From a virus, in IMG/VR virus record IMGVR_UViG_3300011982_000005, positions 1-6,841 of that record: a stretch of DNA of 6,841 nucleotides. One strand, given 5' to 3'. The translations under genes and the position numbers were made by a program. The notes under the pieces were generated by a model. The model was not told where the DNA came from and ran no database searches. It saw only the letters and a program-made list of their open reading frames with translations. This document shows positions 1 to 6,841 of this stretch, in pieces. How positions within the stretch are numbered: position 1 is the stretch's first letter; every line of letters starts with the position of its first letter.

Positions 1-99
1 GGGGGAATTGGGTAAACAAGAGTTTGTTTTCCTTGCTTTGTAATTGTCGTATCACTTCGAAATATAGTTCGTTCAAGGTATAATCCTTGTACTTTTTCA
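1..99. repeat. Terminal direct repeat, copy 1 (overlap from a circular genome or contig)
   Basis: Bases 1-99 (gggggaattgggtaaacaag...taatccttgtactttttca) match 6743-6841 base for base. The repeat lies inside an uninterrupted ORF that reads through the junction. Confidence 0.95.
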
Positions 100-1052
100 A
101 AACTATACGACTTATAGCCGATTGCTGGGCCTTTAGAAGCCAAACAGAACGGCTTGGCAAATTTAGATTGTAGAATTTTTGGCAAATCAGTAAAGCTTGT
201 AACATACGTTGTAACATAGCTGGCAGTTCCGCTATCAGCAGGTTGGACATCGATATTCCCTTGACGGCACAACGTCCAAGCCTTACGTATACACCTTGTT
301 GCGTATTGGTACGCCTTTTCATCATCAAACCAAAAGAAACCATGATAGTGGGGTCTAAAGGTTTCATTGCCATATTCGCTACAAATAAAGTAGCGGACAA
401 CTTGTTTTGCTTTTGCTTTTTCTTTTTCATATATTTTTTTGTAATATTGATAAACTTCAGAATATAAATCATACTCTTCATCATCTAAATCATCTAACCA
501 ACATTCAAAACTCTGCAATTTAGGATTGTAACCAAACCAATAAGTAAACGTAAACAATTTATCATAGAATTTCAGACGGAAATGTCGAAGCAACATCGAA
601 TTCAAATAATAGCGAAAACGCTTCAAAAACTTTTGTACATCAGAACGTGAAGCCACTCCAACAGCGTTACAAACATCAAAACGGGAAAGAGGAGGTACAA
701 AACTACCACAAGACGAATAACGAACGGACACTTTTTCCGAGTAAGAAGTTTCATCGCAATTGGAATATTTATATCCTTTCGCATCATCAAGTATATAGCG
801 TGAAGCGTCTTCAGCAGGTCGAGCAAATGGAACATGATTATTATCGTATGTTAAGGTGAAAAATAAAGCAAATCGATTATCTTTGAATTCCTGAGTAATC
901 CGCGCACGCCAAATCTTAGCTTTTTTATCAAGGCACATATAACACTTACCACAGGCATGAGCATACCAACGGCCATTTTGTTTAACCAAGACAGGGTCAA
1001 CACAAGGCAATAAAACTTCTTTAGGCTTAACAAGCGATACTAATGGGTGCAT
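1..1052 (-). CDS. VP4: Replication initiation protein (HUH rolling-circle endonuclease, microvirus VP4/gpA class), codons 1-350. The ORF continues across the circular junction into 6742..6007.
   Basis: Hand translation from ATG 1052-1050 gives MHPLVSLVKPKEVLLPCVDPVLVKQNGRWYAHACGKCYMCLDKKAKIWRARITQEFKDNRFALFFTLTYDNNHVPF... It contains a Cys cluster (CGKCYMC), motif I FFTLTY (846-863), motif II RPHYHGFFW (330-356), motif III tyrosines SYVTTYVTS (195-221), then PFCLASKGPAIGY. There is no stop codon down to base 1. The start overlaps the upstream stop as TAATG (1050-1054). Confidence 0.92.
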   Translation of the reverse strand, partial: MHPLVSLVKPKEVLLPCVDPVLVKQNGRWYAHACGKCYMCLDKKAKIWRARITQEFKDNRFALFFTLTYDNNHVPFARPAEDASRYILDDAKGYKYSNCDETSYSEKVSVRYSSCGSFVPPLSRFDVCNAVGVASRSDVQKFLKRFRYYLNSMLLRHFRLKFYDKLFTFTYWFGYNPKLQSFECWLDDLDDEEYDLYSEVYQYYKKIYEKEKAKAKQVVRYFICSEYGNETFRPHYHGFFWFDDEKAYQYATRCIRKAWTLCRQGNIDVQPADSGTASYVTTYVTSFTDLPKILQSKFAKPFCLASKGPAIGYKSYSFEKVQGLYLERTIFRSDTTITKQGKQTLVYPIP

Positions 1053-1246
1053 TACTCAAAATCAAGATTTAATTTAATAAAATCAACAACAGACTCAAAG
1101 GTAGAAAAACAAAAATAACGACCATCGGAAAACTCAACACGATAAATAGTTATATCAAAATTACCATGCTTAGAAATACGATGTTCCTTAAATAAAGAAA
1201 ATTCAGTATTCTCAATCAAAGGAAATTTAGTCTTAATACAATTCAT
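1052..1246 (-). CDS. Hypothetical 64-aa protein between the peptidase and Rep genes
   Basis: ORF from the track, with ATG at 1246-1244. It overlaps the peptidase 3' end by 14 nt, and its TAA stop overlaps the Rep ATG (TAATG). A purine-rich AAGAAAGG lies about 9 nt upstream. I recognise no motif (MNCIKTKFPLIENTEFSLFKEHRISKHGNFDITIYRVEFSDGRYFCFSTFESVVDFIKLNLDFE). Confidence 0.6.
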   Translation of the reverse strand: MNCIKTKFPLIENTEFSLFKEHRISKHGNFDITIYRVEFSDGRYFCFSTFESVVDFIKLNLDFE

Positions 1247-1667
1247 AACGGCTACCTTTCTTAATAAGATATTGTGATTTATGGGTAAAACGATTAATAG
1301 AAATATGAAGAAAAGTCGGATAAATAATAACCTGGCCTACAAGAGAATTAAGAGAATCTGTAGAACGAATAACTTTAGCAAGGCGCACAGGAGTATAACC
1401 AATTACACGAACATCAGCAGCAAGACCTTTAAGGTGGTCAGAATTAGGAACACCACCAACATGAGCATTAACAATTCTATTCCGAAAACCAGAGTTAATA
1501 ACAACAGGAGCACATACACGACAACGAAGTAACTCTAAAAAATCACATAAAATACGAAGATTAGATATCTCACTTTCAGATGGTGAATTATAACGACCAT
1601 AACGTTTAACATTACACATTTCAAATAATGTGAAGTGAGTTGATAATTGTATATCGGAATCAATCAT
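1233..1667 (-). CDS. Zn-dependent peptidoglycan peptidase, M15 (Peptidase_M15_3 / LAS-type D-Ala-D-Ala carboxypeptidase-like); putative endolysin
   Basis: 144 aa starting at ATG 1667-1665. It carries the family signature INSGFRNRIVNAHVGGVPNSDHLKGLAADV, that is SGxR..N...GG..S.H..G.A.D with H78-x6-D85, plus a distal FLHIS (H121). The N-terminal FTLFEM segment is typical of this family. There is no signal peptide or TM segment. Confidence 0.85.
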   Translation of the reverse strand: MIDSDIQLSTHFTLFEMCNVKRYGRYNSPSESEISNLRILCDFLELLRCRVCAPVVINSGFRNRIVNAHVGGVPNSDHLKGLAADVRVIGYTPVRLAKVIRSTDSLNSLVGQVIIYPTFLHISINRFTHKSQYLIKKGSRYELY

Positions 1668-1800
1668 AAAATATTAAAATATAAAGTTTGATTTCGCAAA
1701 TATAAACAATTAAATATAATAAGTAATATGATAATCAAATTTTTTAAGGTATTTTAATAAAATCGATGTTTTAATATGTTTGGAGCCCTGTCAGTTTTAC
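1668..1800 (-). promoter_or_regulatory. Very AT-rich upstream region of the peptidase-Rep-capsid gene string; candidate promoter with a Bacteroidota-type -7 box
   Basis: My hand count gives about 18 percent GC over 1671-1790. The minus strand reads TATATTTG (plus 1697-1704), matching the Bacteroides -7 consensus TAnnTTTG, 29 nt upstream of the peptidase ATG. No well-spaced -33 TTTG was found. TTTTAATA occurs twice (1752-1759 and 1769-1776), flanking an ATCGAT palindrome. A (TA)n run lies at 1801-1809. Confidence 0.35.
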
Positions 1801-2017
1801 TATATATATCAAGGGGGAAAGTACGCAGCACGGAGGGCGTGCGCCACTTACGTGGAAACTGAAAAGTAAATAATTTTAAGCTTTTAGGGGGGTCGTATCG
1901 CAAGCTTCACTATCCGCCAAAGGCGAGAAAAATAGGTATGCATTTCGAGTGCGTTCCGTTTCCTGTAAGCGGAAACTACACGCCCGACCGGCTTTGTGTT
2001 CGCAAGCTCACCTAATA
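1801..2017 (-). other. GC-rich, hairpin-dense non-coding block of unknown function (candidate complementary-strand origin, ssDNA initiation signal or structured RNA)
   Basis: Hand count gives 100 G+C in 200 nt (1811-2010), against very AT-rich flanks. Stem-loops (plus coordinates): 1828-1842 (GCACG/CGTGC); 1844-1855 (CCAC/GTGG, with GUAA loop on the minus strand); 1878-1907 (AAGCTT/AAGCTT); 1915-1925 (CGCC/GGCG); 1951-1983 (GCGT+GTTTCC / GGAAAC+ACGC); 1978-1999 (ACAC+GCC / GGC+GTGT). Repeated 9-mers: TCGCAAGCT at 1898-1906 and 2000-2008, and GYGGAAACT at 1852-1860 and 1969-1977. Confidence 0.6.
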
Positions 2018-2050
2018 GCAAACAAAAATAGCGCAGCCGAAGCTACGCTA
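2018..2050 (-). terminator. Rho-independent terminator closing the minus-strand gene string
   Basis: The minus strand reads UAGCGUAGC-UUCG-GCUGCGCUA, a 9-bp stem with one G.U pair and a cUUCGg tetraloop (plus 2029-2050). It is followed directly by UUUUUGUUUG (plus 2019-2028). The stem contains the TAG stop of the 40-aa ORF. Confidence 0.75.
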
Positions 2051-2165
2051 AAGTTAAAGAGAAAAGAACACGTAAACCAATATTCAATAAAGGCAAAAAC
2101 AAGTTCCATAAAAACCACACAAAGGCGATAACAATTAACACCTTTTTCAAATTAAAATCAAACAT
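2043..2165 (-). CDS. Small hydrophobic membrane protein, 40 aa (not in the ORF track)
   Basis: Hand translation from ATG 2165-2163 to TAG 2045-2043 gives MFDFNLKKVLIVIAFVWFLWNLFLPLLNIGLRVLFSLTLA. A short polar N-terminus with KK precedes a TM-length hydrophobic stretch. It starts 9 nt after the preceding micro-ORF, and the terminator follows immediately. Confidence 0.5.
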   Translation of the reverse strand: MFDFNLKKVLIVIAFVWFLWNLFLPLLNIGLRVLFSLTLA

Positions 2166-2174
2166 AACAATAAA

Positions 2175-2264
2175 TTAGTTAGTAACACCTAAAGCGGTAG
2201 CAAGTGCAGTCAATGCCGATACGGCAATCTGGAGCACTAACTTCCATACATTTTGTTTTTTCAT
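2175..2264 (-). CDS. Small single-pass membrane protein, 29 aa (not in the ORF track); holin-like candidate
   Basis: Hand translation from ATG 2264-2262 to TAA 2177-2175 gives MKKQNVWKLVLQIAVSALTALATALGVTN. A basic N-terminus precedes one Ala/Leu/Thr-rich TM helix. It starts 32 nt downstream of the VP2 stop on the same strand. Confidence 0.55.
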   Translation of the reverse strand: MKKQNVWKLVLQIAVSALTALATALGVTN

Positions 2265-2296
2265 AATAATAACGAATTAAATTAATTAATATTATA

Positions 2297-3439
2297 CTAA
2301 CGCCTACGACCACGCATTGTTTTGGAAGAACTTTTAACATTACCACGCGAATCATAATTCGTAGTATGAACAGTTTCAAGAGAACCGAAATTATTATATT
2401 GTCCAACAGCCTGGACACCATTAAGAACAGTATTGAGAAAACCATTAGTCGCATTAGCAACACCCAAATTAATGTTATTATAAATAGCATCTTCCTGGGC
2501 ACTCCACAAACGAGGTTGCCAATAATATGACTTAGAAGCAAGGCGATTAGACCAACGCTGGCCGTTTGCCTGTGCATCAATTAAACCAACTTGATGGCCT
2601 AAAAGTTTACTATTACTTTGAGCATTCATAAGGGCAGCACCTGCACTCGTTTGCGCAGCATAAGCACTTAAACGATTAGTAAAAGCATTCTGATAACCTG
2701 TAGAAACACGCATCGCCTGTTCTTTATTTTCAAGTTCAGCAGAACGAATAACAAAAGGCAAAACAGCGCGAGCACGTTTGTTATCAAGGCCAAGTTGTTC
2801 AATCTGTTTAATAAGCTGATCTTGATTCAAAGATTCTGTACCGACTTTTTGCATAGTCAACGCTGTTTCATGCGCAATCTTATCGATATTACCTTGCAAT
2901 TCTTGCAACTGGGCAGGTTTCATATAATCTAAATCATATTGCGCAGCATTATTGACAATAGATTGTCCATTTACTTGAGAACGCAACAATTCTAATTGCT
3001 GTAAATTAAAATCTTGCTTGGTCTGATTATCAATTTCCTTACCTGCTGCTTCTGCATTCATATCACGAACTTGTGCAGCAACAAGCGAAGATTGTTGAAC
3101 CATTTGTGCAGCAGTATTGACATTAGATACAGATGAATTCAGATCAGGCGAAGACGTAGAAGCAATAGAAGACTGATTGCCAGGATTAACCTGGCCTAAC
3201 ATCATATAGGGGTTTAATCCTGCTTGACGCATGCGTGCTACTTGTTGCTCAGGAGCATTATAGGCGTTTTGCACTTGAATCAATTGTTCTTGACGCTGAT
3301 TATTCTTCGCAACAGCATCAGCATTTAGCTTAGCGCCTAATATACTCGCACCTGCACCAATAAGAGCACCAACAATAAATCTTCTATTCTCGAAAGGAGG
3401 GGAGAGCAAATCTCCCCTTATTAAAAAATTACAACACAT
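2297..3439 (-). CDS. VP2: DNA pilot / minor capsid protein (microvirus VP2, functional analogue of phiX174 H)
   Basis: The ORF in the track starts at GTG 3538, but I place the start at ATG 3439-3437, 1 nt after the upstream TAG (380 aa). It has a Gly/Ala-rich hydrophobic segment (FIVGALIGAGASILGAK) followed by RMRQAGLNPYMMLG, typical of microvirus pilot proteins. A long Gln-rich helical or coiled-coil-like middle follows, and a basic C-terminus (KTMRGRRR). Confidence 0.85.
   Translation of the reverse strand: MCCNFLIRGDLLSPPFENRRFIVGALIGAGASILGAKLNADAVAKNNQRQEQLIQVQNAYNAPEQQVARMRQAGLNPYMMLGQVNPGNQSSIASTSSPDLNSSVSNVNTAAQMVQQSSLVAAQVRDMNAEAAGKEIDNQTKQDFNLQQLELLRSQVNGQSIVNNAAQYDLDYMKPAQLQELQGNIDKIAHETALTMQKVGTESLNQDQLIKQIEQLGLDNKRARAVLPFVIRSAELENKEQAMRVSTGYQNAFTNRLSAYAAQTSAGAALMNAQSNSKLLGHQVGLIDAQANGQRWSNRLASKSYYWQPRLWSAQEDAIYNNINLGVANATNGFLNTVLNGVQAVGQYNNFGSLETVHTTNYDSRGNVKSSSKTMRGRRR
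3398..3418 (-). other. Perfect 8-bp GC-rich hairpin inside the first 15 codons of VP2
   Basis: The minus strand reads AGGGGAGA-UUUGC-UCUCCCCU (plus: aggggaga 3398-3405, loop 3406-3410, tctcccct 3411-3418). It begins 21 nt after the VP2 ATG. Only CCUUUCG follows, so it is not a canonical terminator. Confidence 0.5.
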
Positions 3440-3440
3440 A

Positions 3441-3881
3441 CTATTCAGGTTTAGAATCAGTAGAAGCAGGAGCATCACCAGGAGATGCAGAATCAGTAGA
3501 ACCAACATCAGTAGGAGAAGCATCTGGGAACATATCACCTATAACAACGTCTAGTTCTCTTCGTACTTGGTCAAGTTCTATTTCGTTTTCAAAATGACGT
3601 GAAACAATAGTATTTTTTATCTGCTCATCGGTCCAACCACGATTTCGAGAATCATGCGGAACATTAACAACAAGTTGTGAAATAACGTCCGCAACTTCAC
3701 GAGGTACGTTTTTATCAATCAAACGCGTTATCAAATTAGCACGATGACCATCAGATAGGACTGGGTTTAACTTCTCAAACAATTCTGTACTCTCAACATC
3801 AACAACAACGATGCTTTCGGAAGGAGGAACAAAACAATTTGCATCATCTACAACACTACGACTTAAATAACAATTTTTCAT
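3441..3881 (-). CDS. Hypothetical acidic 146-aa protein; possible internal scaffolding protein (VP3-like), judged by position and composition only
   Basis: ATG at 3881-3879, 18 nt downstream of the VP1 stop. The protein is Asp/Glu-rich with a disordered-looking Pro/Ser/Thr/Asp C-terminal tail (PDASPTDVGSTDSASPGDAPASTDSKPE). It sits between VP1 and VP2. I recognise no diagnostic motif. Confidence 0.5.
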   Translation of the reverse strand: MKNCYLSRSVVDDANCFVPPSESIVVVDVESTELFEKLNPVLSDGHRANLITRLIDKNVPREVADVISQLVVNVPHDSRNRGWTDEQIKNTIVSRHFENEIELDQVRRELDVVIGDMFPDASPTDVGSTDSASPGDAPASTDSKPE

Positions 3882-3899
3882 AATTAAAAATTTATACTA

Positions 3900-5978
3900 T
3901 TAAACACGTGGCATACCAGATACGGACATATCGCTAATATACTGAACAGAGAAACGAGAAGAAATACGGAAAGGGTCGGTTTTTTCTGTACCATCATAAT
4001 TGACTTCTACAACTTCATTCGTTACAGCAGGGTCGACAAACAAAAAGTTTGTCGGTACACCTTTGTACTCCATAGTCGAAGTAGAAACAGCAAACGAACT
4101 ACCTGCACGATATGCACGCAAGTTCAAACCAAGTTCAGCGTTAAAATAAGTAGGACGATGAACGCTTAACACCTGCATACTACGACCAGTCTTAAACTCT
4201 CCGTGGATATAATCTGCACCAGACTTAAATTCATGGTAACGAGGTTGCCAACCATAAACTTTATTAACATCAAACAACTGATTAGTACTACCAAGCGCCT
4301 GACCAACACTCAAAGGGCCTGAATGATTACCAAACATTTTACCATAAACGTTGGCAACCTCATTTTTATGTTCAAGAAAATACTTCTGCATTTGACCAGT
4401 CAAATCAGGCAAACGATACGATGAAAACTTAATCCAAGGAGGCAACAAACGAGAAAACTCGATTGGCTGCATGCCAAGGTCTTCTGTTTCAGGTACAAAA
4501 TAGTCTTCACGAGCAAACTTGACATTGAAAGCGTCGATACCATCTGCATCATAAAGAGTAGCAGGAGAAAACCAAGAAAGGCACATCAATACACCATGTT
4601 CACGTGCATCAAAATTAACGTGCCCACTCTGACCAGAATCAATGTAACTGCCTTGCTGTCCAAAATTTGTTGAACTATCATCAGTGCGACCATCAGAAGT
4701 CGCAATAACTGGACTAACCTCGAGGGCTTTTTGGAAACCACCAACGTAAATACTTTGTATCAAATCATCAGCAACATCTACACCATAATGAGCCATCATT
4801 TGGCCTTTATAAGTCTTAGGCGCACGGCTTGTTATTTGAGCCATCTTATCAAGGGCCATCAAATTACGAAGAGAAGCAGCAGAGATTGTAACATCAGAAG
4901 AATTTAAAGGACGCTGTAAAACGTCATTAGCTTCAAAGAAAGCACGATTATTACCAACAAATGTTTTAATAGTTGATGAAACATCATCAACAAACAAAGG
5001 TGATGGATGGATATTACTCAACAAATCCTTACTATACTTAACGTAACGAGGTGAAAAAAAATCAAGAGCGCGATCCGCACATTCCTTGGTAGGCTTAAAA
5101 TCGAACAGAAACTTCTGCGAAGACTTATCAAACAAATCATCGACATTATACGCAAGCGGATTCACATTCTCATAGTTTGTATCTAAGAAATGGTCTTGAT
5201 AGATCTTCTGATAAGCAAGCCAATAAAACATATTAGCTTCATAATTCATCATGTCAGAAGTAACAGAATTAACGTTGATATTTTCACCAATAAAAGGCAT
5301 AGCACCATATTTCATCATATCCGATAAACGAATATAAGAATATAAGATATTATAACCGAAAATATCAGTCATACCTGGAGAAGTAGCAAGTATTTCGCCG
5401 AAAGGTTTTTTTAAATCTGTAGGTTCAAACTTTTTAGTAGGAACATTATTAACAGCAGAAGCACGAATACCACCAAACGTGCCACCTTGGTGAAATTCAT
5501 TAGTAACACTACTACTACCGGAAGAACTGGAAGCAGAACCAGCAAAAGAAACATAATCAAAACGTTGACCGTCAGCATCCGAGATGCCTGCAAAACGCGC
5601 AAAAACTTGATAAGGCTTGAAACTAGGAGCGCGCATCTTAGAACCTTGCTTAAAATTATAAGCAAGCAAACTACTTGAAGTAGTATTCTTAGGATTAACA
5701 CCAGAGAACAGAGCCTTTGAACTACTACACATCAAACGAGCAGGAACAAAATAAAAAGCAAAATTCTGCTTCATACCAAGGAACGGCCGGCCTTGCAACG
5801 TCTGTGCCTGAACGATACTCGTAGTATCAATACTCACATGATCATGAGGATTTAAAAACATCTGAAACACGGGTAACAACATGCCTGCTGGCTGTGTGTA
5901 CAAATGGGTTTCGCTCCTATCGAAACCATTACGAGGCCGTTTGGCTGGGCCAACGTCAATTTTTGGAACTTTAGACAT
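3900..5978 (-). CDS. VP1: Major capsid protein (Microviridae F/VP1 family)
   Basis: 692 aa. The N-terminus RPRNGFDRSETHLYTQPAGMLLPVFQMFLNPHDHVSID follows the F-protein pattern (N.FDLS....T...G.L.P.....LPGD-like). FAFYFVPARLM and the C-terminal GWQPRYHEFKSGADYIHGEF also fit the family. The size fits the large-capsid (Alpavirinae-like) microviruses. Confidence 0.93.
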   Translation of the reverse strand: MSKVPKIDVGPAKRPRNGFDRSETHLYTQPAGMLLPVFQMFLNPHDHVSIDTTSIVQAQTLQGRPFLGMKQNFAFYFVPARLMCSSSKALFSGVNPKNTTSSSLLAYNFKQGSKMRAPSFKPYQVFARFAGISDADGQRFDYVSFAGSASSSSGSSSVTNEFHQGGTFGGIRASAVNNVPTKKFEPTDLKKPFGEILATSPGMTDIFGYNILYSYIRLSDMMKYGAMPFIGENINVNSVTSDMMNYEANMFYWLAYQKIYQDHFLDTNYENVNPLAYNVDDLFDKSSQKFLFDFKPTKECADRALDFFSPRYVKYSKDLLSNIHPSPLFVDDVSSTIKTFVGNNRAFFEANDVLQRPLNSSDVTISAASLRNLMALDKMAQITSRAPKTYKGQMMAHYGVDVADDLIQSIYVGGFQKALEVSPVIATSDGRTDDSSTNFGQQGSYIDSGQSGHVNFDAREHGVLMCLSWFSPATLYDADGIDAFNVKFAREDYFVPETEDLGMQPIEFSRLLPPWIKFSSYRLPDLTGQMQKYFLEHKNEVANVYGKMFGNHSGPLSVGQALGSTNQLFDVNKVYGWQPRYHEFKSGADYIHGEFKTGRSMQVLSVHRPTYFNAELGLNLRAYRAGSSFAVSTSTMEYKGVPTNFLFVDPAVTNEVVEVNYDGTEKTDPFRISSRFSVQYISDMSVSGMPRV

Positions 5979-6006
5979 AATAAAAAACTTTAATTAAACA
6001 TATAAA

Positions 6007-6841
6007 TTAATCCGTTAAACTATCTAATACATGAGCATTTGCACGCTTACTTTTAGTATGCAATTTCAAATCATCTTTAATCTTATCAGAATACTTTTTA
6101 AAGTGAGGTTGATTAAACTCATAAAAATTCGATAAACGCTCATCATTACGAATTCCACGAATGTAAAACCGACCTAAATTAAGATTATAACTTTTAGCAA
6201 TGTCATACATCCAAGGATATTTATCAATAATATCACAATAATATTTTGGCAAGCGCATTAAAAAAGAATAATCAATGCAGGATTGAATATCAAACTCAGG
6301 ATAATCAACAGCAACAGGATAAATATCATCAGCAGGCCATGTCAAATTACGATATAAATTATCCATATACTGATATTGCTGAAATAACTGAAATTGCGCA
6401 TACTGATAATGAAACCAATCTAACATCTCCATATAATGTAATGGATGAGTGTCAAAATGTAAACACCATCTTAGACAAGCGCGAGCAGCTGCAATATCGG
6501 CGGAATGAAACCAAGAATCTTCGGCATTATAACTATCTCCTAATTCATTAATAGCACGCGTAGGGTATAACTTCGTATTCTTTTTATACCATTCCAGGCA
6601 AGCGAGAGAAGCAGAAGCATCTACTTTTTCGATTCCATCGACTTTTTTATATTTGATAAATCGCGTATATAGACGTAATTTATCCCAATCAGATAACGTG
6701 CTATACTCAAAGCACTTTGGGAAATATCGACATACAACACTCGGGGGAATTGGGTAAACAAGAGTTTGTTTTCCTTGCTTTGTAATTGTCGTATCACTTC
6801 GAAATATAGTTCGTTCAAGGTATAATCCTTGTACTTTTTCA
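6007..6841 (-). CDS. VP4: Replication initiation protein, C-terminal part (codons about 318-595). 6743-6841 duplicates 1-99.
   Basis: The same frame as the 1-1052 piece continues through the junction (codon 351 uses bases 2, 1 and 6742). The reading is ...QTLVYPIPPSVVCRYFPKCFEYSTLSDWDKLRLYTRFIKYKKVDGIEKVDASASLACLEWYKKNTKLYPTRAINELGDSYNAEDSWFHSADIAAARACLRWCLHFDTHPLHYMEMLDWF..., without any stop, down to TAA 6009-6007. The track's 141-aa ORF (6007-6432) is only the tail from the first internal ATG. Confidence 0.9.
   Translation of the reverse strand, partial: EKVQGLYLERTIFRSDTTITKQGKQTLVYPIPPSVVCRYFPKCFEYSTLSDWDKLRLYTRFIKYKKVDGIEKVDASASLACLEWYKKNTKLYPTRAINELGDSYNAEDSWFHSADIAAARACLRWCLHFDTHPLHYMEMLDWFHYQYAQFQLFQQYQYMDNLYRNLTWPADDIYPVAVDYPEFDIQSCIDYSFLMRLPKYYCDIIDKYPWMYDIAKSYNLNLGRFYIRGIRNDERLSNFYEFNQPHFKKYSDKIKDDLKLHTKSKRANAHVLDSLTD
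6743..6841. repeat. Terminal direct repeat, copy 2 (identical to 1-99)
   Basis: Base-for-base identity with 1-99. The offset of 6742 nt defines the genome length. Confidence 0.95.

Follow-up and report, generated by a model that had tools for sequence, protein, structure and literature searches.

Except for protein E of phiX174, it is an open question by what means microviruses lyse their hosts. In the human gut and mouth, Alpavirinae- and gokushovirus-like phages rank with the most abundant. The question arises in concrete form in IMG/VR virus record IMGVR_UViG_3300011982_000005, whose positions 1 to 6,841 were analysed here (the window, i.e., the whole stretch of DNA). These 6841 bases contain a complete circular microvirus genome of 6742 nucleotides (nt) plus a 99-nt terminal redundancy, and the virus is a small temperate phage with single-stranded DNA whose hosts are Bacteroidota of the mouth. 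The genome encodes an M15_3 peptidase, the presumed endolysin, whose N-terminus has no hydrophobic segment, in agreement with the initial annotation of the stretch, which had described the enzyme as lacking a signal sequence. By which route could it cross the inner membrane? Roux et al. 2012 proposed the M15 peptidase as a microviral endolysin, with no holin named and no route across the inner membrane suggested (PMC3394797), and we found no description of a holin in microviruses in the searchable literature. The initial annotation had put forward two unannotated membrane micro open reading frames (ORFs), of 29 and 40 amino acids (aa), as holin-type partners of the peptidase. We found that ORF29 and ORF40 are genuine, conserved genes. 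ORF29 is a viral variant, devoid of a lipobox, of a bacterial family known as smalltalk or DUF6486, and it is part of a pair of peptides, conserved as a module beside the putative endolysin in temperate Bacteroidota microviruses, that is neither annotated in public records nor discussed in the searchable literature. The holin interpretation of this module is plausible: reasonable, but unproven.

Are the two ORFs genes at all? ORF29 ('st29'; 2175-2264, minus strand; MKKQNVWKLVLQIAVSALTALATALGVTN) encodes a 29-aa single-helix peptide without cysteine and starts 32 nt past the stop codon of VP2, on the same strand. It scores 33.7 bits against the NCBIfam smalltalk model NF033879 (cut-off 24.7), of which it covers only positions 1-26 of 29, and 39.9 bits against the Pfam model of DUF6486, PF20096 (cut-off 22.7), so that the resemblance to smalltalk peptides suspected in the initial annotation is borne out. 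Homologues follow VP2 in about 20 distinct microvirus sequences, and one lies directly 3' of VP2 in all complete relatives found except one, even where the identity of VP1 is down to 35-49%. In close relatives, ORF29 departs from that of the window only in two synonymous changes. Across 14 distinct nucleotide sequences, the pairwise ratio of non-synonymous to synonymous rates (dN/dS) is 0.06-0.3, and the variable columns of the alignment include 21 of the 27 third codon positions and 7 of the 27 second positions. The pair L018 and L020 (such handles designate the sequences compared with the window) shows seven synonymous and no non-synonymous differences. Score and substitution pattern thus show that ORF29 is a real gene that belongs to smalltalk/DUF6486.

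ORF40 (2043-2165, minus strand; MFDFNLKKVLIVIAFVWFLWNLFLPLLNIGLRVLFSLTLA) encodes a 40-aa single-helix peptide, begins 9 nt past the ORF29 stop codon, and has no match in Pfam, NCBIfam or PHROGs. The exact protein was called on 10 contigs and its DNA is 100% identical across the five close relatives compared at the nucleotide level. Homologues occur in L026 (3726-3836) and L145. The first 20 codons carry six synonymous and two non-synonymous changes relative to the homologues; against L026 alone, the proportions of synonymous (pS) and non-synonymous (pN) differences in these codons are 0.58 and 0.04 (dN/dS about 0.04), and the C-terminal half diverges fast. The pattern of change indicates that ORF40, too, is a real gene under purifying selection. 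The initial annotation had called for a comparison of synteny as well as of substitutions; the pair sits in one and the same slot wherever a relative carries it.

The remaining doubt would be that both are chance ORFs in a T-rich spacer. Many spurious hydrophobic ORFs do occur in the other frames of the T-rich coding strand, so hydrophobicity alone is not beyond chance and the case for both micro-ORFs rests on conservation. Neither ORF is annotated in GenBank OR148991 (Microvirus D_HF4_111, from human saliva), which is 95.8% identical to the window. Set against this, ORF29 passes the curated family cut-offs, substitutions are mostly synonymous, and the reading frame is uninterrupted in some 20 distinct sequences whose synonymous divergence is saturating; we consider chance effectively excluded. 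This is a clear case of real genes dropped below annotation length cut-offs. In another record, OR149003 (L002), GenBank lists, in another frame across the smalltalk homologue, a 56-aa ORF (3655-3825, WMC01509.1) whose initial hydrophobic stretch is ISALTALATALGV read off-frame.

The constant place of ORF29 raises the possibility that the peptides serve VP2, the DNA pilot protein (2297-3439, minus strand; identified by tblastn against relatives, annotated as DNA pilot protein in OR148991, and called as a 380-aa gene on prophage contigs). They could chaperone or silence the N-terminal transmembrane (TM) helix of newly made VP2, or aid assembly or DNA delivery. The position immediately 3' of VP2 is invariant, even in the partial contig L056 where no peptidase is seen, and VP2 has a weak hydrophobic segment at its N-terminus (best hydropathy window 1.54). 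We nevertheless judge a VP2 accessory role very unlikely. ORF29 remains 89-93% identical where VP2 falls to ~30%, so that they do not evolve together; L014 has VP2 but no micro-ORFs; bacterial smalltalks have no VP2 partner; and we know of no such accessory for phiX174 H.

The second position of the module behaves differently from the first. In the relatives carrying a smalltalk-like ORF, a further TM micro-ORF, 33-48 codons long, invariably comes next (in L002 and L012 the frame after the smalltalk is hydrophobic but has no clear start codon). This slot is filled by at least three sequence types. ORF40 represents type A. Type B consists of MS[YTA]KK followed by a hydrophobic stretch with ..IPLL.. 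and has a dN/dS of 0.1-0.4 in close pairs, and type C, which begins MTWQK.., was found in L113 and L128. The genome L147 has an ORF29 identical to that of the window and a VP1 94% identical to it, yet its second slot holds type B. In L026 types A and B stand in tandem and in L150 the slot contains two paralogues. By these comparisons, the second micro-ORF is a swappable slot rather than one family.

What do the relatives of ORF29 look like in bacteria? We scanned three collections (IMG/VR, GTDB genomes and metagenomes) with a degenerate DNA pattern for the helix motif [SA]A[LI]TAL[AL]T[AS]LGV. All 11 matches in IMG/VR lie on microvirus-sized contigs, and the matches in GTDB genomes and metagenomes comprise both the microviral type and chromosomal genes of Prevotella, Prevotellaceae and Paludibacteraceae. 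Other probes returned less: the N-terminal pattern of the smalltalk alignment gave no matches in genomes, a protein search with a tandem fusion of two smalltalks gave only 4, and tblastn of the 29-aa peptide and a 31-aa one against phages and plasmids was too insensitive. The viral and bacterial members share their length class and a basic N-terminus followed by the helix motif, and some viral and Prevotella chromosomal members have an identical helix core of 12-14 residues (AALTALLTSLGV). They differ at the C-terminus. All 32 bacterial smalltalks examined close with a perfect lipoprotein lipobox, V-[VT]-[SA]-C, plus 1-4 residues, whereas the microviral copies all stop 1-3 residues after LGV and have no cysteine. 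Among the 154 proteins from a search of a representative library, the seven members without cysteine are microviral except one of unknown origin. The profile used in that search included one ~65-aa lipoprotein in its query alignment, and such lipoproteins dominated its results. The bacterial smalltalk is in effect a lipoprotein signal peptide whose mature part is only the cysteine and 1-4 residues.

The contrast between the two termini bears on two alternative explanations. In the first, ORF29 would be a non-cleavable mimic of a signal peptide, blocking lipoprotein processing (Lgt or LspA, as globomycin does) or another conserved membrane enzyme, and ORF40 or its type B counterpart would act like phiX174 E, their helices with a central proline resembling the TM segment of E and acting on an enzyme of the lipid II pathway; the peptidase would be auxiliary to this 'protein antibiotic'. 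Single-gene lysis is classically a microviral strategy, and E depends on Pro21 of its TM helix. The termination of the microviral copies 1-3 residues before a cysteine that all 32 bacterial smalltalks have, the coverage of the family profile to position 26 of 29, and a helix nearly identical in some viral and bacterial members, as if it bound one conserved host protein, all fit this explanation. So does the mid-helix proline that is usual in types A and B (FLPLL in ORF40, IPLL in type B), which recalls LLLPSLL in E, itself a microvirus lysis protein with an N-terminal TM helix. The likeness stops there. E has 91 aa, is encoded inside gene D, inhibits MraY and needs no hydrolase, whereas ORF29 and ORF40 are free-standing and accompanied by an M15 peptidase. 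Single-gene-lysis phages need no dedicated peptidoglycan peptidase, but here one is present and conserved. The proline is absent from the type A peptide of L026 and from type C, so it is not universal in the slot. Neither peptide shows similarity in Pfam or PHROGs to E or to known single-gene-lysis proteins, no homology to E is detectable, and the proposed target is purely conjectural. We regard this explanation as distinctly unlikely.

In the second alternative, the phage would make the very peptide that the host frees when it cleaves its own smalltalk pre-lipoprotein, and would thereby tap or jam a host signal. ORF29 and its relatives match the predicted cleaved signal peptide of bacterial smalltalk almost exactly, and enterococcal pheromones are cut out of lipoprotein signal peptides. 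We consider such mimicry highly improbable, given that the literature offers no evidence for smalltalk as a signal, that there is no known candidate receptor, and that the obligatory second TM ORF is left unexplained.

We also looked at the genes around the bacterial smalltalks. We sampled loci L036, L040, L042, L043, L047, L049, L051 and L094-L146. An HU-HIG gene lies directly 5' of smalltalk in 14 of the 17 chromosomal loci with enough upstream sequence, whereas the microviral upstream gene is VP2 and the microviral smalltalk is always followed by the second TM micro-ORF. All five loci of the 'MNDFKKQ..VTAC' subtype, from Prevotella (L043, L049, L051, L111, L120), encode a cassette of M15_3 peptidase, HU-HIG and smalltalk, in which the peptidases have 145-150 aa and no signal peptides. 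The association of smalltalk with an M15_3 peptidase devoid of export signal thus recurs independently in Prevotella chromosomes, and we count it in favour of a holin-like role. The viral and bacterial M15_3 peptidases are only 27-29% identical, so there is no sign of recent co-transfer. The paper defining HU-HIG reports no conserved operon and does not describe this cassette. The initial annotation had mentioned cell-wall amidases beside such peptides in Bacteroidales genomes; the hydrolase that we found near them is an M15_3 peptidase. In the Bacteroides loci, smalltalk sat at contig ends, and Bacteroides-type smalltalk gave two matches in viral contigs, both likewise at contig ends and with no informative neighbours.

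The viral peptidase itself (1233-1667, minus strand; 144 aa) matches PF08291 with 58 bits and PHROG 894 'endolysin' with an E-value of 5.5e-23; the closest solved sequence is 1LBU, a zinc D-Ala-D-Ala carboxypeptidase. Its sole high hydropathy window (1.65) is internal and includes charged residues. It is present in every complete smalltalk-bearing microvirus genome that we found. The order VP2, smalltalk-like ORF, one or two TM micro-ORFs, terminator, non-coding region and M15 peptidase is kept in divergent microviruses (L024, L026, L030/L149, L031, L057, L150) with VP1 35-49% and Rep about 30-43% identical.

Membrane character was assessed by Kyte-Doolittle hydropathy, using the best window of 19 residues. 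The values are 2.05 for ORF29 and 2.51 for ORF40, and in each peptide a basic N-terminus accompanies a single hydrophobic stretch of membrane-spanning strength. Nothing else that the genome encodes reaches this strength in a terminal segment or in one free of charges. The 64-aa protein p64 and a 146-aa protein, which we considered as holin candidates, were rejected: neither has a hydrophobic segment. Since ORF29 and ORF40 are the only products of clear TM strength, and the peptidase has no export signal, they are by elimination the candidates for the membrane step. Neither peptide has the periplasmic domain or lipobox that would suggest a spanin. In the ORF29 helix, Q12, S16, T19, T23 and G26 lie inside an 80-degree arc, i.e., form a one-sided polar stripe, and small-xxx-small and heptad motifs are present. 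These motifs and the stripe, together with conservation far above that of VP2, fit a specific helix-helix interface. Conservation this strict is unusual for a TM segment and, at the level of sequence, suggests a defined oligomer or partner.

The coding status, conservation, predicted membrane character, family membership and gene order of the pair are established, as is the recurrent M15_3 neighbourhood in phage and bacteria. From here, our tentative preference is for a lysis system in which ORF29 and ORF40 would supply the holin-like function, a membrane lesion, and the M15_3 peptidase the other half. All three would be expressed from one transcript, the peptidase from its 5' end and the peptides from its 3' end, the genes being on one strand with one terminator. 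Both peptides would lie in the inner membrane with the N-terminus inside and the C-terminus outside. ORF29 would be a free-standing smalltalk lipoprotein signal peptide, beyond the reach of lipidation and cleavage because it stops before the lipobox cysteine. It would build up in the membrane, where the conserved stripe of small and polar residues would let its copies associate; the variable second peptide would be its partner or set the timing, after the manner of two-component holins and holin/antiholin pairs. Once a critical level was reached, the membrane would be breached, giving the peptidase access to the murein, and the cell would lyse. A broader version, on which we place less confidence and which we hold to be doubtful, is that smalltalks in general are membrane-active partners of hydrolases without signal peptides, and that a clade of temperate Bacteroidota microviruses has adopted a smalltalk without cysteine plus a swappable helix as a two-peptide mini-holin for an M15 endolysin.

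There are precedents for parts of this scheme. Two-component holins and holin/antiholin pairs exist (e.g., gp24.1/gp26 of SPP1, XhlA/XhlB of PBSX, LydA/LydB of P1) and are the closest systems in double-stranded DNA phages: two adjacent genes for small membrane proteins, one partner conserved and one variable, with a cytoplasmic murein hydrolase lacking a signal sequence. ORF29 and ORF40 show no sequence similarity to them, are 2-3 times smaller, and have a single helix each without a charged C-terminal tail; their genes do not adjoin that of the hydrolase, and their virus has 6.7 kb of single-stranded DNA. The colicin or bacteriocin release lipoproteins of Enterobacteria also leave a tiny signal peptide of the lipoprotein type in the inner membrane, where it is stable and itself toxic to the membrane. 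They aid permeabilisation of the envelope and release of cytoplasmic proteins, as proposed for ORF29. Unlike ORF29, which has neither cysteine nor mature part, they are true lipoproteins with a mature lipopeptide of ~28 aa, and they act partly through the phospholipase A of the outer membrane. Type I toxin peptides of the TisB, Hok and Fst class are likewise single-helix peptides of the inner membrane, of 19-50 aa, which depolarise or permeabilise the membrane upon accumulation. They are chromosomal or plasmid-borne and controlled by antisense RNAs, whereas neither such an RNA nor such a context was seen in the window: a scan against Rfam gave no family, its sole match (SorY, E 0.55) being just the hairpin of the terminator.

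Several observations weigh against the holin-like reading. The part of the initial proposal that stands is that both ORFs encode real, conserved, predicted membrane peptides; the signatures of a holin are another matter. Comparison with the holin families of Pfam and PHROGs gave no similarity for ORF29 or ORF40, PHROGs has no smalltalk entry at all, and, to our knowledge, 29-40 aa would be below the size of any characterised holin. The C-termini (...LGVTN in ORF29, ...RVLFSLTLA in ORF40) have no highly charged hydrophilic tail. The peptides and the peptidase are at opposite ends of the transcript, ~6 kb apart in the prophage. The peptidase can also be found on its own: the complete genome L014 (VP1 66% identical), a recombinant with a different VP2 C-terminus, keeps it in the absence of both micro-ORFs, and the rodent or marmot microviruses L152-L154 encode it without these ORFs, L153 and L154 having no free-standing TM ORF at all. 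Conversely, the partial gokushovirus-like contig L056 carries a smalltalk-like ORF after VP2 and before Rep, with no peptidase in view. No smalltalk-like ORF was found beside M15-like peptidases in about 30 caudoviral contigs, and an M15 gene lies near smalltalk in 5 of 15 bacterial loci with enough upstream sequence and in none of the other 10. Finally, pair and peptidase are both nearly universal in the main clade, so their co-occurrence has little independent weight.

If the broader version is true, this would be the first holin-endolysin lysis system in Microviridae, with the smallest holin known, and would provide a first function for a peptide family common in Bacteroidota genomes. The pair offers two concrete candidates for lysis, and the natural variants of the second slot (types A, B and C), together with L014 as a natural knockout, make the matter directly testable. 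For smalltalk/DUF6486, a micro-protein that owes its name to NCBI annotation, with no literature behind it, and to which the searchable literature assigns no function, the pair is also a first functional lead: the virus keeps only the signal-peptide part, and in both settings the peptide is found near M15_3 peptidases without export signals.

How does the organisation of the genome relate to this? All genes of the window are on the minus strand, in the order M15_3 peptidase, p64, Rep (which runs across the window origin), VP1 (3900-5978), the acidic 146-aa protein, VP2, ORF29, ORF40, terminator and a non-coding region of 375 nt (1668-2042) that leads back to the peptidase. The initial annotation is thus right that the pair comes last before the terminator and the peptidase first after the non-coding region. 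On the circle, the micro-ORFs and the peptidase are neighbours across this region, with the terminator and the attachment site between them. The strong intrinsic terminator of the gene string (2019-2050, minus strand) has a TTCG loop on a stem of 9 bp, of which 5 are G-C, and a T-run (2050-2029), and the ORF40 stop codon sits within its 5' arm. The same hairpin and T-run (AGCGTRGC-TTCG-GYYRCGCT) follow the second micro-ORF in 10 lineages (the window, L002, L012, L015, L018, L020, L022-L024 and L026), with compensatory changes in the stem such as AGTGTGGC...GTCACACT in L022.

The non-coding region contains a dif-like attachment core (attP) of 21 bp (1714-1734), repeated at both prophage junctions, which we identified as the overlap of two blastn segments when the window was compared with L003, L004 and L008. 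In L003 the junctions are at 3650-3730 and 10410-10490; the host side of the junction reads ATTTATCATAA-TACTTA-TTATAT, also dif-like, and at least two different host contexts flank the right end (L003, L009). The non-coding region lies at the right end of the prophage in L003-L010, and most of the 10 contigs bearing ORF40 are Bacteroidota-like chromosomes with SusC-type receptors and about 42-43% guanine plus cytosine (GC). In the integrated order, the peptidase is the first phage gene and VP2, ORF29 and ORF40 close the prophage. These junctions indicate that the virus is temperate and integrates at a dif-like site within its non-coding region. Xer-mediated integration has reportedly been described for Alpavirinae, and the dif-like site of the window fits it.

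A temperate lifestyle brings in another explanation, namely that the prophage makes the peptides for superinfection exclusion or lysogenic conversion, blocking DNA delivery by related microviruses or altering the envelope of the lysogen. The pair stands at the extreme right end of the prophage, next to attR and closed by a terminator of its own, where such genes are typically located, and always comes after VP2, a DNA-delivery protein, with which it is inherited in one block. The exchange of the second ORF (type A in the window, B in L147) and its duplication (L026, L150) resemble an arms race. We found no evident repressor gene in the genome, either in the ORF list or by scans with family models, which also fits. 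An arms-race gene would hardly be as conserved as ORF29, however, and, with no separate promoter in evidence, a lysogen could express the pair only by transcription running on through the structural genes. Nor would this explain why smalltalk and M15 are linked in bacterial chromosomes. We thus think exclusion or conversion unlikely, and keep the holin-like reading as the one to be preferred. We also considered whether integration separates a promoter from the peptidase gene, and dropped the idea: the sole TAnnTTTG-type box upstream lies on the peptidase side of the att core.

The rest of the non-coding region may have a role in replication. A conserved block of this GC-rich region includes the motif CTTGATAT (1806-1813, minus strand, inside 1735-2042), a candidate replication origin, presumably the same sequence as the nick-site core of the phiX174 origin; the block also occurs in the non-coding regions of L012 and L022. 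Folded as single-stranded DNA, the region is only modestly better than its shuffles (z-score -2.1).

Some observations concern the wider family of bacterial smalltalks. A family of lipoproteins of ~65-70 aa (P0005-P0064; L053 6001-6198) combines a smalltalk-like signal peptide with a mature part, CNVTRTITNKSEYYQRGDTSVMIQTKTTESYDASKK, that is conserved; smalltalk may have arisen from it by truncation. In L053, the lipoprotein gene adjoins the genes for a replication initiator, a methyltransferase and a single-stranded-DNA-binding protein of a mobile element. One bacterial smalltalk of 30 aa (MKKDIIKAIIQMVIAALTALLTSLGVVSCL) is identical on many contigs of differing GC content, which often break beside it, suggesting that it is part of a multi-copy element. 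The bacterial smalltalk P0119 gave a sub-threshold match to the Pfam family Phage_holin_3_3 (LydA holin; E 0.014, 15.9 bits, cut-off 28.4), which probably reflects transmembrane composition and is not used as evidence.

Other observations concern the microviruses. In the marmot virus L152, which has a different gene order, an unrelated TM micro-ORF of 41 aa (5326-5451; MKKAILITLLSVMMLFRFVYICRIIVFLFGVFVALIVLTCV) ends just inside the start of the M15 gene and is another candidate small membrane partner. A 141-aa ORF of the window (6007-6432, minus strand) was rejected as a separate gene; it is the in-frame C-terminal part of Rep, read from an internal methionine. Lastly, in the prophages L003, L004 and L008, ORF29 and ORF40 are identical to those of the window and Rep and VP2 are ~95% identical, and VP1 is 75-85% identical, which points to strong mosaicism or diversifying change in the capsid gene alone.

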